The notes below the pieces were generated by a model. It was not told where the DNA came from, made no database searches, and was given only the letters and a program-made list of their open reading frames with translations. 22,910 bases of DNA, taken from IMG/VR virus record IMGVR_UViG_2713896903_000002; one strand, written 5' to 3'. This stretch comes from a virus (lineage: Duplodnaviria > Heunggongvirae > Uroviricota > Caudoviricetes). This document shows, piece by piece, positions 1,069 through 5,686 of the stretch (position 1 is the first letter of the stretch; each line of letters begins with the position of its first letter). Both the position numbers and the translations under genes were made by a program.

Positions 1069-1358
1069 TGGTGAGTTTACGTAAAGCAGCGCGGGGCCAG
1101 ATGTGCCAGGTCAGAATCCCTGGCTACTGCAATCACAATCCCGAAACGTCTGTGCTGGCGCATTACCGACTGGCGGGAACGTGCGGAACAGCGATAAAGC
1201 CACATGATATGCAGGCAGCGATTGCCTGTAGCTCGTGCCACGATTTAATCGACGGGCGGGTAAAAACCAGTGATTACACCAAAGAAGAATTGCGCCTGAT
1301 GCATGCAGAAGGTGTTTTTCGCACACAAGAAATCTGGAGAAAGGAAGGTTATTTATGA
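1068..1358 (+). CDS. DUF1364 / YbcO-like putative nuclease (Cys/His-rich)
   Basis: 96 aa; recalled similarity to DLP12 YbcO (KAARG..CQVRIPG.CN.NPETSVLAH.R..G.CG...KP.D..A.IACS.CHD); translationally coupled to Q by ATGA overlap. Confidence 0.65.
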   Translation: MVSLRKAARGQMCQVRIPGYCNHNPETSVLAHYRLAGTCGTAIKPHDMQAAIACSSCHDLIDGRVKTSDYTKEELRLMHAEGVFRTQEIWRKEGYL

Positions 1359-1909
1359 TTTACCCAACAAATACAGGCAAAAGCGGGGAACACCTTCGTC
1401 TCACCACGCTGGAAAGTGTCTGGATTCAGGGAAAACTGCGCATGTGGGGGCGCTGGTCGTATATTGGCGGCGGTAAGATGGGAAATATGTTTAACCAGTT
1501 GCTGGCATCCAAAAAATTGACGAAAACAGCCGTCAATGAAGCCCTGCGCAGGATGAAAAAAGCGGGAATAGAGAAACCTGAGCTGGAAGCGTTTTTGCGA
1601 GAGATGATCAATGGCAAGCAAAAGACCTGGCTGGCGCATTGTACTGATGCAGAGGCGTTATGTATTGATCGAGTCATAAGTGAGGTGCTGGCAGAGCATC
1701 CTGGATTGATTTGTATCCTCCGGCAACGGTATGAGGGACGGGGGATGACCAAGCGCAAAATGGCTGAATTGCTAAATGATTCACACCCTGAGTGGTGTTA
1801 CGCCACGTGCCGTAATCGCATAGATGCGTGGTTGAAAATGGCAGAGTTTATGCTCTATCTGCCGATGCGTGATGCATTCTCTTCCGGGGATCTAGAAACC
1901 GTCTGTTGA
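1355..1909 (+). CDS. late-gene antitermination protein Q (Phage_antitermQ-like family)
   Basis: 184 aa; RMWGRW...C..AEALCIDRV...LLNDSHPEWCYATCRNRIDAWL pattern resembles QuuD-type Q proteins; followed immediately by a consensus-like promoter and the lysis/packaging genes. Confidence 0.65.
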   Translation: MIYPTNTGKSGEHLRLTTLESVWIQGKLRMWGRWSYIGGGKMGNMFNQLLASKKLTKTAVNEALRRMKKAGIEKPELEAFLREMINGKQKTWLAHCTDAEALCIDRVISEVLAEHPGLICILRQRYEGRGMTKRKMAELLNDSHPEWCYATCRNRIDAWLKMAEFMLYLPMRDAFSSGDLETVC

Positions 1910-1935
1910 CTCAATCTGTTATCCGGGGCTATATT
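1906..1935 (+). promoter_or_regulatory. candidate late promoter (PR'-like): -35 TTGACT (1906-1911), 18-nt spacer, -10 TATATT (1930-1935)
   Basis: Near-consensus sigma70 hexamers directly read from sequence; -35 overlaps the Q stop codon, as the lambda PR' -35 TTGACT lies just after Q. Confidence 0.5.
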
Positions 1936-1997
1936 CCTCACACGCCAGCAAAATCTGGCGTCGGGATTGGCGTCCCGGATGTTTACGGAGCGATATG

Positions 1998-2018
1998 AGA
2001 CGCGCCCGCGTCTTTTTT
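1998..2018 (+). terminator. intrinsic terminator (tR'-like) about 60 nt downstream of the putative late start
   Basis: 6-bp GC-rich stem agacgc/gcgtct (1998-2003 with 2008-2013), 4-nt loop, followed by T6 run. Confidence 0.45.
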
Positions 2019-2181
2019 CATATCGTTTGCACAGTCACATTCGCGATTTATGGCGAGCTGTGTGGGGGAGCCGAAAGGCTCGCCGGTTTCCGTACCCGGT
2101 TACGCCAACCCCGCACGGTTCGCCACCAGTTCGATTGGCGTCGTCGGTGGCGATAATTTCCAAATGTACGGAGTTATCGTT

Positions 2182-2739
2182 ATGACCACTCAAATCTCTG
2201 TTGAAACTCTCTCCCCGATCATCCATAACCAGATTCCTGTTATTACCACCGAACTTTTGGCGCAGCTTTACGGCACTGAGCCGGTGCGTATTCGCCAGAA
2301 TCATCATGAGAACAAAGTACGCTTCGTTGAAGGGAAACACTTTTTCAAAGTTGTTGGTAATGACCTTAAAGAATTGCGGGTAGCTTTAAACTACTCACAA
2401 AATTCAGTTTCACCCAAAACCCGCTCGCTCATACTCTGGACAGAACGAGGCGCAGCACGCCATGCCAAAATGCTCGAAACCGATCAGGCGTGGGATGTGT
2501 TCGAAAAACTGGAAGACTGCTATTTCAGCCAAAAGGATCCGTCAACGCCAGTTTCATGTCAGAAAAGTTACGACACGCGAGTTCTCTGTTATCAGCGAGG
2601 CGGTGTCGCTGTTTCCACAATTCAGTTGCGGGATGATGAAATTGTTATTTCCCTTGAGTCATGGCTGGAATTGGCTAGAGCCAATGGTTGGTTTGTTGTT
2701 CGCAAAGAGCAACTGCTGGAAAGGTTGATGCAGCTTTAA
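2182..2739 (+). CDS. ORF6N-domain phage antirepressor-like protein
   Basis: ATG 2182 with GGAG 8 nt upstream; N-terminal LAQLYGTEP.RIRQN...N..RFVEGKHFFK..G.DLKEL ... LWTERGAARHAKML matches the ORF6N domain pattern as recalled; the upstream in-frame extension to 2050 is GC-rich, structured and lacks an RBS. Confidence 0.55.
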   Translation: MTTQISVETLSPIIHNQIPVITTELLAQLYGTEPVRIRQNHHENKVRFVEGKHFFKVVGNDLKELRVALNYSQNSVSPKTRSLILWTERGAARHAKMLETDQAWDVFEKLEDCYFSQKDPSTPVSCQKSYDTRVLCYQRGGVAVSTIQLRDDEIVISLESWLELARANGWFVVRKEQLLERLMQL

Positions 2740-2836
2740 AAAAATTCTTGCAATTTTAGCCATAAACTGCTTCAATTTTGCTACGCTTCGCAAAGCTGTA
2801 TCGCGAGGCGAACCAAATGCAATTGAACTTTAATAG

Positions 2837-2860
2837 AACCCGCCATTGAGCGGGTTTTGT
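2837..2860 (+). terminator. intrinsic terminator downstream of the ORF6N gene
   Basis: acccgc / cattga loop / gcgggt hairpin followed by TTTT. Confidence 0.45.
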
Positions 2861-3039
2861 TGTTTGAGGAGGGGGAGAATGAATCAGACTGGTCAACCCA
2901 ACTATGCGCTTTTCGCCGGGAATGATAGCAATAGAGAAAGCCATAAGTGAATTAAAAATCTGTCAGCGCCAGTTCGGCCAAGGAAATGATTCTGGTGTCA
3001 GAGCTTTTATTCGCTAATTTTTTCACTGGGAGGCTATTT

Positions 3040-3297
3040 ATGCATTCACACCATCATCAAATATCTATGATCCCACTTACCATGAGTTCACCCATTAAAG
3101 GTTTTTCACTGTATGTAGAAAGCGAAGACATGGCTGTCGCTATAGCTGAGCTTGAAAATGCCTTATCACAGCTCAAGAACGGAGATAAGGCATTCAAAGA
3201 AAGTGGCACGTTGGTTGGTAACGTCAGAGCAAGTTATTGCTATCCTTACCGTCCTCATTGTGCCGCGAAAGGTCTTTATTGGGATGAAGGGGATTAA
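3040..3297 (+). CDS. hypothetical protein (85 aa), convergent partner of the 3294..3806 gene
   Basis: ATG 3040 with GGGAGG 6 nt upstream; AT-rich; its stop shares the TTAA tetranucleotide with the stop of the minus-strand gene. Confidence 0.4.
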   Translation: MHSHHHQISMIPLTMSSPIKGFSLYVESEDMAVAIAELENALSQLKNGDKAFKESGTLVGNVRASYCYPYRPHCAAKGLYWDEGD

Positions 3298-3806
3298 GCA
3301 AGGACTTGTTCACCGATAGTTACTGGTAATGGACAAATGTATTCCCAGACTGGATCAGGGTTAAAAGTTTTTCCTGACCAGTAAAGCTCCATTCTGTAGG
3401 TGAATTCCAATACCGATGTATCATTTCTTAATAATGACATATCTCCACGATGATAACTATCTGTTTGTATTATAAAAATTTTATCTGATGGTTTTCCGTC
3501 TGTAAGTCGAAAATGTTTAGCCTCCTCCAGGTTACCCCAGGCGAAGAGTGACGTATAGCGAGAAGGTTTTTGCGGGCAAACTCCTCTTCGGTAAAACTCA
3601 AGTCCCCAGTCGATGAGTTCGTTTTTATTATAAATTTTTGCCGCATTATTAATGAGATATCCTTCGCCTTGTGGAGCAAGCCCGCGCGGAAAAAGTTTGT
3701 CTACCAGAGATGACATTTCAACAGGAGTTATATCGGAGAATTGCTTTGGTGTAACGATATCGCCTGTTGAGTATATTCCTCGGCGATCAACCATAAATAG
3801 TTTCAT
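3294..3806 (-). CDS. hypothetical protein (170 aa) in AT-rich moron; function unknown
   Basis: Long minus-strand ORF in an otherwise + strand operon; GGAG 6 nt upstream of the ATG at 3804-3806 (alternative upstream ATG at 3816-3818 without a good RBS); visibly lower GC than flanks. Confidence 0.5.
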   Translation of the reverse strand: MKLFMVDRRGIYSTGDIVTPKQFSDITPVEMSSLVDKLFPRGLAPQGEGYLINNAAKIYNKNELIDWGLEFYRRGVCPQKPSRYTSLFAWGNLEEAKHFRLTDGKPSDKIFIIQTDSYHRGDMSLLRNDTSVLEFTYRMELYWSGKTFNPDPVWEYICPLPVTIGEQVLA

Positions 3807-4046
3807 TAATTTCTCCATTGATAGTTGTTACTTTTGGCGATGTAACGATATCAAACGAGAATTTATATCGCCAGATGCTTAATCTGATACTTCATCTGAC
3901 CCTAGTATGTGTCGGTTTTTTTATTTAAGGCCACTGACAGGTCCATTTAGTGCAACGCCTTTCCCCGTTTCCGCTCCTGGAATATTCGGGGATTTTTTAT
4001 TCCCTAAACTTACACCCGCGATATGTGCGAGGTGAGAGATGATGAA

Positions 4047-4385: not shown

Positions 4386-4862
4386 ATGCAGACACTGAAT
4401 TCCCAGCGTAAAGCTTTCCTTGATATGGTGGCATGGTCAGAAGGAACGGATAACGGACGGCAGAAAACCAGAAATCACGGTTATGATGTTATTGTCGGTG
4501 GCGAACTGTTCACTGATTACTCCGATCACCCCCGCAAACTTGTCACGCTAAATCCGAAACTCAAATCAACAGCCGCCGGACGTTACCAGCTTCTTTCACG
4601 CTGGTGGGATGCCTACCGCAAGCAACTTGGCCTGAAAGATTTTTCGCCAGAAAGCCAGGACGCTGTAGCGCTGCAGCAGATTAAAGAGCGTGGCGCATTA
4701 CCGATGATTGACCGCGGCGATATTCGTCAGGCAATCGACCGTTGCAGCAATATCTGGGCTTCGTTGCCGGGCGCTGGTTACGGTCAGTATGAACATAGAA
4801 TCGGTGACCTGATTGCCCGATTTAAAGAAGCTGGTGGGGTGGTAAATGAAGCTGAGATATAA
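4386..4862 (+). CDS. R: endolysin, lambda R-type lytic transglycosylase
   Basis: Near-identity over most of its length to lambda R as recalled (NSQRKAFLDMVAWSEGTDNGRQKTRNHGYDVIVGGELFTDYSDHPRKLVTLNPKLKST...). Confidence 0.9.
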   Translation: MQTLNSQRKAFLDMVAWSEGTDNGRQKTRNHGYDVIVGGELFTDYSDHPRKLVTLNPKLKSTAAGRYQLLSRWWDAYRKQLGLKDFSPESQDAVALQQIKERGALPMIDRGDIRQAIDRCSNIWASLPGAGYGQYEHRIGDLIARFKEAGGVVNEAEI

Positions 4863-5238
4863 GCTGGTTATTGTTGCCTTCTTTGTTACCGTCATCGGTT
4901 CTTTTATCTGGTATGCCGGGCATTACTACAGCAAATATCAACACGAAAAGGAGCGCGCTGATGAGGCTGTACGAAATGCTGAATCAGCAACAGCCATTAC
5001 CCGTAACGTCCTGCAATCACTGCAAATCATCAACACAGTTATAGAGGCTAACCAGCATGCAAAACAGCAGATCGCACTGGAGTCACAGAGAATTCAGAAA
5101 GAGATCAAAGTGGCTGTTGCGGATGATGATTGCGCTGTTCGTATCGTTCCTTCTGGCGCAGTTAAGCGGTTGCACGAATACGCGAACGGTATACGTGTCG
5201 GTGCCGGTGGTTCCGTTACCAGCCAGTCTGACGGCTGA
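4846..5238 (+). CDS. i-spanin (Rz-like)
   Basis: Overlaps the R stop; N-terminal transmembrane segment LVIVAFFVTVIGSFIWYAG; coiled-coil-like periplasmic part; another frame carries an Rz1-like lipoprotein. Confidence 0.6.
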   Translation: MKLRYKLVIVAFFVTVIGSFIWYAGHYYSKYQHEKERADEAVRNAESATAITRNVLQSLQIINTVIEANQHAKQQIALESQRIQKEIKVAVADDDCAVRIVPSGAVKRLHEYANGIRVGAGGSVTSQSDG

Positions 5239-5401
5239 AACACCCCAGCCAGATTTACCCGACCCGTTTACGTGGGGGGCAAGCCTTAACCTGAATGTTG
5301 CATTGTTGTCAGCGTTAGCACAGTGCAACAGGGATAAGGCTGATATCAGGACTTTTGAGAAAAACAGGGCAGCACAAACCAATGGCACGATTAAACGTTG
5401 A
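5123..5401 (+). CDS. o-spanin (Rz1-like outer-membrane lipoprotein), overlapping the 3' part of the Rz-like gene
   Basis: +1-frame ORF inside/after Rz; MMIALFVSFLLAQLSGC lipobox signal; proline-rich mature region (PVVPLPASLTAETPQPDLPDP). Confidence 0.55.
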   Translation: MMIALFVSFLLAQLSGCTNTRTVYVSVPVVPLPASLTAETPQPDLPDPFTWGASLNLNVALLSALAQCNRDKADIRTFEKNRAAQTNGTIKR

Positions 5402-5686
5402 AGTTATCCCACCAGACAGCGAAACGATGAACGGGATTTTTTGCAGTGATTGAATGTAAATATGCGCATCAGCCGATGACGCCAAAAGTTATCGATGAAA
5501 TGCAACGCGAAGCAGCGCGTCTTGTACTGCGAGCGACAAATACAAAGGTTGCGTTCGTTCTGGACTGACATTACAGAAGCTCCTTTGATAAGGGGCTTCG
5601 ATAATGTCAAAGCTCGTTATCTGCACCCGCCGCGCACCCAGCGCACTGGCCGATAGCGGGCTTTTTTATTAATAAAGCGAGGCTGT

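Follow-up and report, generated by a model that had tools for sequence, protein, structure and literature searches.

The immI region of phages P1 and P7 is treated in Citron and Schuster (1990). In the P1 annotation (NC_005856), this region comprises the P1c4 promoter, the sites a1 and b1, c4, the site a2, the site b2 over the Shine-Dalgarno sequence of icd, and then ant. The site names used here follow this P1 nomenclature as given in the annotation. In the Salmonella prophage Gifsy-1, the promoter PisrK, experimentally shown to drive isrK and anrP (PMC4825925), makes the 77-nt RNA IsrK and a read-through RNA of ~910 nt, which is translationally silent (Hershko-Shalev et al. 2016, PMC4825925). 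IsrK in trans activates the translation of orf45 and anrP, AnrP raises antQ expression and induces the prophage, and an ~80-nt RNA, STnc1160, is processed from the orf45 region (PMC4825925). Studies of Gifsy-1 and P1 have, between them, shown the promoter, the short and long isoforms, the ~80-nt processed RNA, the outcome for the antirepressor, and, through compensatory mutations, the pairing of a1 with a' (PMC4825925; NC_005856). In APSE phages, c4 and isrK have been reported to occur together, and a 2025 review still treats IsrK and c4 as separate systems.

Two further systems resemble parts of this design. Lambda (PR'-qut-tR' with 6S RNA) and Stx phages (StxS; PMC7547250) have, like the locus described here, a constitutive-looking promoter behind Q and a short terminated transcript. 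The P4 CI RNA with seqA and seqC is a processed leader RNA that pairs with sites repeated on either side of it, an analogy that the Gifsy-1 authors point out (PMC4825925), but P4 CI acts by transcription termination, and no sequence or Rfam relationship with it was found here.

The window analyzed here is a stretch of 22,910 nt from a virus of the class Caudoviricetes (IMG/VR record IMGVR_UViG_2713896903_000002). The region 1906-2739 of this window is very probably a self-contained portable cassette, which represents the lambdoid version of the P1/P7 immI (c4-ant) region and the same unit as isrK-orf45/STnc1160-anrP of Gifsy-1. The IsrK-C4 element in the window is thus already known, and its features are listed in Table 1.

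Table 1. Features of the cassette and of its flanks, with positions in the window
Feature	Position	Strand	Basis or remark
Q-like antiterminator gene (context, outside the cassette)	1355-1909	+	Pfam, PHROG, structure similarity
Cassette promoter (PisrK equivalent), TTGACT-18-TATATT	1906-1935	+	Consensus scan, 10/12 consensus matches; -35 TTGACT 1906-1911, 18-nt spacer, -10 TATATT 1930-1935
c4-a1b1 (RF03163)	1929-1981	+	50.1 bits (gathering score, 46.7), full model covered
IsrK small RNA homologue, 77 nt	1942-2018	+	Rfam RF01394, predicted fold
IsrK hairpin 1	1942-1961	+	
IsrK hairpin 2	1962-1977	+	
IsrK terminator	1997-2018	+	Stem-loop 1997-2014, then T run up to 2018 (T6)
a1 site GGGAUUGGCGU	1963-1973	+	Complementary to a' of C4
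b1 site UACGGAG	1984-1990	+	Complementary to loop of C4 hairpin 2
C4 antisense RNA homologue (Gifsy-1 STnc1160/'orf45' region)	2046-2130	+	Rfam RF01695, fold
b' UUCCGUAC	2088-2095	+	Loop of C4 hairpin 2
a' ACGCCAACCCC	2102-2112	+	Single-stranded junction of C4
a2 site GAUUGGCGU	2133-2141	+	Loop of hairpin 2120-2153, pairs with a'
b2 site GUACGGAG	2166-2173	+	Overlaps antirepressor Shine-Dalgarno sequence GGAG 2170-2173
Antirepressor gene (AnrP-like)	2182-2739	+	Pfam ORF6N, PHROG 2379; start ATG 2182
Q-linked promoter/leader/terminator unit, better late-promoter candidate	2744-2870	+	Position, linkage to Q family; TTGCAA 2748-2753, 17-nt spacer, TTCAAT 2771-2776; conserved leader 2786-2811; terminator 2838-2866

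Comparison with Gifsy-1 and P1

In Gifsy-1, all three Rfam families recur in unchanged order; they lie after the Q gene STM2617 and before the antirepressor-like gene STM2616, which isrJ follows. The whole order is shared with the present window, namely, Q, a promoter abutting its stop codon, the 77-nt IsrK with its terminator, a C4-type RNA, an ORF6N antirepressor, and a second promoter-terminator unit. The 5' half of IsrK is almost identical in the two, and both have the a-site class UUGGCGU. The differences lie in the Q protein (DUF1133/Q21-like here versus Q82-type in Gifsy-1), the b-site class (UACGGAG versus UCACCG), the leader ORF (fused in frame to the antirepressor here versus ending on the antirepressor start codon in Gifsy-1), and the unit after the antirepressor, which is isrJ only in Gifsy-1.

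The P1/P7 immI region follows the same logic and has the same six RNA elements in the same order. In both, C4 carries a' in its junction and b' in the hairpin-2 loop, b2 overlaps the Shine-Dalgarno sequence of the following gene, and both have an antirepressor as cargo and specificity classes (compare the heteroimmunity of P1 and P7). In contrast to P1/P7, the present cassette has no icd, encodes an ORF6N protein instead of Ant1/2, and has a strong terminator after b1, giving a discrete IsrK small RNA; no C1-type operator was identified in it, and the phage that carries it is lambdoid.

Promoter, IsrK, and terminator

The cassette starts with a near-consensus promoter that overlaps the stop codon of the Q-like ORF (TGA, 1907-1909) by its -35 hexamer, as the initial annotation had it. 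Of 17 distinct modules that were aligned (the present window, Gifsy-1, a Stx2a phage, and IMG/VR prophages), nearly all, those of Gifsy-1 and the Stx2a phage among them, keep the -10 hexamer along with the spacer segment ATCCGGGGC. Transcription is predicted to start at about A1942, near which the initial annotation had also placed it; the -10 hexamer and the start context agree with those of Gifsy-1, and the isrK match in Rfam begins at 1942. The hairpin and T6 terminator proposed downstream of the promoter were recovered as well. A short terminated transcript of ~77 nt is expected, which is the homologue of IsrK, so that the proposal of a short 6S-like RNA holds for the transcript but not for the Q-dependent PR' logic attached to it.

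The RNA family scan that had been suggested for this stretch returned isrK (RF01394; 74.7 bits against a gathering score of 50; model positions 1 to 77 of 77), c4-a1b1, and C4 (RF01695; 76.3 bits against a gathering score of 45; model positions 1 to 87 of 87), all above their gathering scores and with E values of about 1e-13 to 1e-14. A permissive Rfam scan of 1800-2400 revealed nothing beyond these three. By fold and scans, the locus has the two 5' hairpins, the intrinsic terminator, and the promoter of its own that define isrK. Neither promoter-like sites (6 found in 6 kb versus 8.7 expected) nor terminator-like sites (8 versus 5.8 expected) exceed chance, and the case therefore rests on the Rfam matches, the fold z-scores, and the conservation of the unit in many phages. 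The fold of the 77-nt RNA alone is unremarkable (z of -1.55), and that of 1942-2200 has a z of -6.2. The pairing of 63% obtained for the terminator helix is an alignment artefact, since MAFFT fails to align the differing IsrK terminators, whose GC stem and T run are particular to each variant.

C4 antisense RNA and its complementary sites

The leader at 2019-2181 is GC rich and contains the hairpins named in the initial annotation, with small offsets in their coordinates. Its G+C content is 55.8% (63.5% in 2046-2130), compared with 46.5% in the whole window; the hairpin gagcc-GAAA-ggctc lies at 2068-2081, and the arms cgccacc and ggtggcg lie at 2120-2127 and 2146-2153. Of the options that had been offered for this leader, the small RNA is the one borne out by Rfam, as a C4 homologue. 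The minimum free energy of 2046-2130 is -49.1 kcal/mol (z of -5.66), and the corresponding structure, with a closing stem that encloses two hairpins, is identical to the Rfam model. The three helices of C4 are 100% paired, with 9 covarying pairs. The RNA keeps P1-like ends (GG at the 5' end and CACC followed by A at the 3' end), and by analogy with the annotated ends of P1 c4, the mature C4 RNA would extend from ~2052 to ~2127. Cleavage by RNase P may generate the 5' end in the present cassette.

The a' and b' segments of C4 are complementary to a2 and b2 downstream, with b2 at the ribosome-binding site, and a second copy of the sites (a1 and b1) lies upstream of C4. A repeat finder independently recovered the arms of a1 and a' as inverted repeat I1 (1962-1973 with 2102-2113), and the hairpin at 2120-2153 that presents a2 has a fold z of -3.15. 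Across the 17 modules, a1:a' comprises 11 pairs, of which 4 covary, together with a co-inserted A:U pair, and is paired in 100% of the cells; a':a2 comprises 9 pairs, also 100% paired, with 4 covarying. When the partner columns were shifted by 1 to 3 positions, a-site pairing fell to 20 to 57%. An independent set of 81 occurrences was retrieved with a 25-nt pattern; in 78 of them, the a1 core occurs together with both its reverse complement and its second copy, and the a sites of this set form 7 sequence classes. The three site copies change together across at least seven specificity classes.

The b sites form five classes, and in each the C4 loop is complementary to its own b1, in the IsrK spacer, and to its own b2, which adjoins or covers the Shine-Dalgarno sequence. 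In the present window, b':b2 is an 8-bp complementarity overlapping GGAG 2170-2173. The statistics are weaker for the b sites because their helices are short (6 to 9 bp). Shuffled loops attain both observed helices in 0.15 to 4.5% of trials per class, and unrelated combinations reach 5 to 7 bp when G:U pairs are allowed. The diagonal is highest in the matrix of longest helices across classes, but the background is high with G:U pairs, and the matrix is for this reason taken as supportive only.

The compensatory mutants described for Gifsy-1 are G28A/C162U and G31A/C159U (PMC4825925). G28A and G31A map to a1 and C159U and C162U map to a', which indicates that the IsrK:orf45 pairing published for Gifsy-1 is an a1:a' pairing of the P1 type. 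In the P1 annotation, a1 is placed in the loop of hairpin 2. The invariant loop of hairpin 1, GCAAAAUC, was also considered as a1 and was rejected, as it has no consistent partner in C4 or near the ribosome-binding site.

Antirepressor gene and leader ORF

The gene under control is a predicted antirepressor (Pfam ORF6N, 72 bits; PHROG 2379 anti-repressor, 306 bits) from a protein family other than that of P1 Ant1/2. Upstream of its start, the reading frame remains free of stop codons as far as AUG 2050, a codon within C4 that is invariant in the 17 aligned modules. The leader ORF varies in length from 27 to 45 codons and is found in each of the three frames with respect to the start of the antirepressor gene. 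In most variants it stops 24 to 53 nt short of that start, and in the present window it runs in frame into the antirepressor. As a coding sequence, the leader ORF is thus not conserved, which argues that the region is conserved as RNA. Since its frames and ends vary, the coupling by stop/start overlap of the Gifsy-1 type appears as the exception.

Proposed switch

In the proposed switch, transcription would start from the near-consensus sigma-70 promoter at ~A1942, and most transcripts would end at the IsrK terminator, giving a 77-nt IsrK that carries a1 and b1. The read-through RNA would continue via the C4-type RNA into the antirepressor gene, and a' and b' of C4 would pair with a2 and b2. 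Because b2 overlaps the Shine-Dalgarno sequence, the antirepressor is proposed to be kept untranslated by this pairing, and occlusion by b':b2 may be the means in the present cassette. Because IsrK has duplicates of the sites, it is proposed to compete, in cis or in trans, for the same segments of C4 as a decoy, which would relieve the block and account for the published activation of anrP translation by IsrK. A repressing antisense role of the C4 homologue in lambdoid cassettes is likewise proposed. In Gifsy-1, constitutive co-expression of orf45/STnc1160 strengthened IsrK toxicity rather than weakening it (PMC4825925), which a simple scheme of C4 repressing and IsrK acting as a decoy fails to predict; the authors attribute activation to a structural switch together with orf45 translation (PMC4825925).

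The published Gifsy-1 model may also be taken as the main route here, although it is the less probable account. The read-through RNA would adopt an inactive fold and be opened by IsrK in trans, the leader ORF would be translated from AUG 2050, the antirepressor would follow by translational coupling, and the C4-like RNA would be a by-product that does not act as a repressor. This model is favored by direct genetic evidence and 30S footprinting from Gifsy-1 (PMC4825925), by the invariance of AUG 2050, and by a full-length fold that pairs the IsrK region with the region around C4. Against it stand the poor conservation of the leader ORF as a coding unit and two features that it leaves unexplained, namely, the exact second copies a2 and b2, which co-vary with a' and b', and the location of b2 on the Shine-Dalgarno sequence of the antirepressor itself. 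In addition, a P1-like maturation of C4 would strip the A and the U of AUG 2050. The switch based on C4 pairing and competition by IsrK is the preferred reading.

Distribution of the cassette and position of the late promoter

The upstream ORF has Pfam matches to DUF1133 (360 bits) and, marginally, to Phage_antitermQ (27.3 bits versus a cut-off of 26), belongs to PHROG 753 ("anti-termination protein Q-like"), and shows weak similarity to the Q21 structures 6jnx and 6p18 (E of about 6e-4). The Q21 cassette itself has been defined previously (10.1101/651190). The initial annotation had read 1906-2018 by the lambda logic, as a Q-dependent late promoter with qut and tR' from which Q-modified polymerase would read into the late genes, the short RNA being a 6S-like by-product. 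This reading is highly improbable in view of the distribution of the cassette, and the cassette itself is not supported as a Q-dependent late promoter.

The Q gene is indeed followed at once by a promoter and a terminator. As in Gifsy-1, the -35 hexamer and the Q stop codon overlap, and 1906-1935 is the sole near-consensus promoter between Q and the lysis genes. The Gifsy-1 long transcript increases ~8-fold in conditions that also induce AntQ (PMC4825925). By its sequence, CAAAAU at +8 to +13 could pass as a -10-like pause element, to which it has a 4/6 match; it is also conserved in Q-less contexts, and P1 has CAAAUU at the equivalent position. Upstream genes could be assigned for 79 of the independent occurrences and were a DUF1133 Q in 16, a Q82-type Q in 11, a PF06530 Q in 9, NinE in ~22 to 24, and another gene in roughly 20. 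The cassette is thus directly behind a Q gene in 36 of 79 copies (~46%), an enrichment that could reflect some functional coupling to Q.

The same numbers speak against the late-promoter reading, as the promoter, spacer, and initial transcribed sequence are identical behind three unrelated Q families, NinE, and other genes, and the promoter and leader are not inherited with the Q family. Targeting of Q proteins relies on binding elements that are specific to each family and adjoin a pause element (10.1101/651190), and a single unvarying promoter and leader therefore cannot serve three unrelated families as qut. In Stx2a phages, the cassette is located in the nin region right after ninE (promoter TTGACG-18-TATATT), ~3 kb upstream of the PF06530 Q gene and tRNAs. 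P1, which has no Q, shows the same leader architecture. Expression of Gifsy-1 fusion plasmids was obtained in E. coli MC4100, a strain without Gifsy-1, although this point is weak because K-12 carries cryptic Q homologues. Late genes were not found directly after the terminator at 1997-2018, where the next gene is the antirepressor; the lysis genes begin at 4023, after the second promoter-terminator unit. In these respects, namely, a promoter and leader that do not co-vary with the Q family and are found without an adjacent Q, the cassette is unlike lambda PR' and StxS.

Close relatives (88 to 97%) of the present Q were surveyed in 80 IMG/VR loci. The cassette was present in 32 and absent from 48, and in the latter, as well as in phage vB_EcoS-666R9, a homologue of the unit at 2744-2870 abuts the Q stop codon. 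Where a cassette is present, a unit of this type follows it in 13 of 13 cases behind a DUF1133 Q, in 0 of 22 behind NinE, and in 0 of 8 behind a PF06530 Q. The isrJ unit behaves similarly, following 9 of 10 cassettes behind a Q82-type Q and 0 of 22 behind NinE, and it abuts Q genes in cassette-less Klebsiella and Enterobacter phages. The downstream unit thus tracks the Q family, which the IsrK unit does not, and this makes it the better late-promoter candidate. It also fits the lambda PR'/StxS family better than the IsrK unit does.

The leader of the downstream unit (2786-2811) is identical across six aligned sequences and contains a TAYGCU -10-like element, and 2744-2870 has a fold z of -3.9. 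Some relatives carry a different terminator in the homologous unit. The candidate promoter has a poor -10 hexamer (TTCAAT, without the A at position 2) and is absent from the list of the consensus scan. A permissive Rfam scan for isrJ in 2680-3000 gave chance-level matches only. From the arrangement of these units, 1906-2739 appears to be an insertion between Q and its own promoter-leader-terminator unit, and the Q-dependent late promoter most likely lies ~800 bases downstream of the cassette promoter.

The remaining proposal for the leader, a decayed version of the tRNA genes that lambdoid phages often carry after Q, has almost nothing left to recommend it and was rejected: a T-loop-like GGTTCG and AGTTCGATT, a CACCA end, and the reported status of P1 C4 as an RNase P substrate count in its favor, but the tRNA scan that had been called for returned 0 tRNA or tmRNA genes in the whole window (ARAGORN), Rfam gave no tRNA match in the window, nor in 1800-2400 even at E up to 10, and the stretch fits the C4 model end to end.

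Implications

A broader reading has two parts, and the chances that both apply are evenly balanced. In the first, the literatures on IsrK and on P1 c4 would describe one portable RNA "immunity" cassette, with IsrK as a decoy for C4 and with at least seven a-site and five b-site classes that change in three places. In the second, the cassette would insert between Q and the promoter of Q, and the role of true 6S-like late leader would fall to the unit at 2744-2870 in the present window and to IsrJ in Gifsy-1. Neither part was found stated in the literature searched. The additions made here are modest and consist of mapping IsrK onto the a1 and b1 sites of P1, describing the specificity classes, and relocating the likely late promoter. 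The comparison also provides a testable site for Q utilisation by the uncharacterised DUF1133 family, at ~2744-2811.

The 295-nt unit matches 766 of 5,426 complete E. coli genomes, with identities of up to 98.6%, and in the best 8 of the 766 matches, the PGAP annotation of the matched stretch contains only the DUF1133 and ORF6N genes and no RNA gene. The cassette is thus carried by about one in seven complete E. coli genomes, including those with Stx phages. In annotations, 1906-2181 should be labelled as isrK and C4 RNA genes that control 2182-2739 and not as a late promoter. The cassette is probably a prophage-induction switch, which in Gifsy-1 leads from IsrK through AnrP to prophage induction and Q expression.

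Diversity and leader features of the IsrK-C4 cassettes

The a sites, which lie in IsrK (a1), in C4 (a') and before the antirepressor gene (a2), fell into seven specificity classes among the 81 cassette occurrences (L087 to L166): TTGGCGT, TTAGCA, TTGGAA, TTAGGAA, TTTGCA, TTGAGA, and TTGGTCT. A few cassette copies are hybrid or broken; the a2 sites of cassettes L114 and L008 come from a different class, and L128 consists of an IsrK fragment only. Two cassettes (284-613 and 3546-3875) occur in a single prophage, L004, one behind Q and the other in the nin region, and they share an a-site class and differ in b-site class.

The loop of IsrK hairpin 1, CAAAAU (window 1949-1954), is unchanged across all of the cassettes, and phage P1 has CAAAUU at this place. 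No consistent complementary partner of the loop was found in C4 or near the ribosome-binding site. Perfectly complementary 8-nt arms (window 1991-1998 and 2018-2025) flank the IsrK terminator and would lengthen its stem in the read-through RNA, and other IsrK terminator variants have analogous arms of other sequence.

The start codon of the antirepressor gene is in frame with AUG 2050, the orf45 equivalent, and no stop codon interrupts window 2050-2184. Translation from AUG 2050 would yield an N-terminally extended antirepressor of 229 amino acids. If C4 matures as in P1, it would begin with the G of this AUG.

In the Stx2a phage LC616031 (L001), the IsrK-C4 cassette is followed directly by an Rfam match to sRNA-Xcc1 (4777-4860; 75.7 bits) and, just 3' of it, a second antirepressor gene (4900-5574) with ORF6N and P22_AR_C domains. 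The APSE paper also describes sRNA-Xcc1 paired with an ORF6N gene.

Candidate late promoters downstream of the antirepressor gene and Q

Inheritance of the unit at window 2744-2870 follows the DUF1133 Q family, both in loci that carry the IsrK cassette and in loci that lack it. The two hexamers of its promoter-like element are covered by a 16-nt direct repeat, with copies at 2742-2757 and 2764-2779. This unit is probably the true late promoter and qut site. Two ORFs without Pfam matches separate the second terminator from the holin gene (4023), a location typical of morons.

Features of the window and of the comparison loci
Feature	Locus	Position	Strand	Detail
Promoter-like element	window	within 2744-2870		TTGCAA-17-TTCAAT
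Leader	window	2786-2811		invariant
Terminator	window	2838-2866		
ORF	window	2986-3297	+	no Pfam match
ORF	window	3294-3818	-	no Pfam match
isrJ sRNA gene	L083 (Gifsy-1)	33406-33512	-	
isrJ sRNA gene	L085	2501-2589		

The isrJ promoter reads TTGCAA-17-TATATT. In cassette-less phages, isrJ and its promoter immediately adjoin Q82-type Q genes, and isrJ also lies downstream of nine of the 10 cassettes located behind such genes. The literature searched yielded no statement of IsrJ as a 6S-like late-leader RNA. Both arrangements suggest that IsrJ may be the 6S-like late-leader RNA of Gifsy-1.
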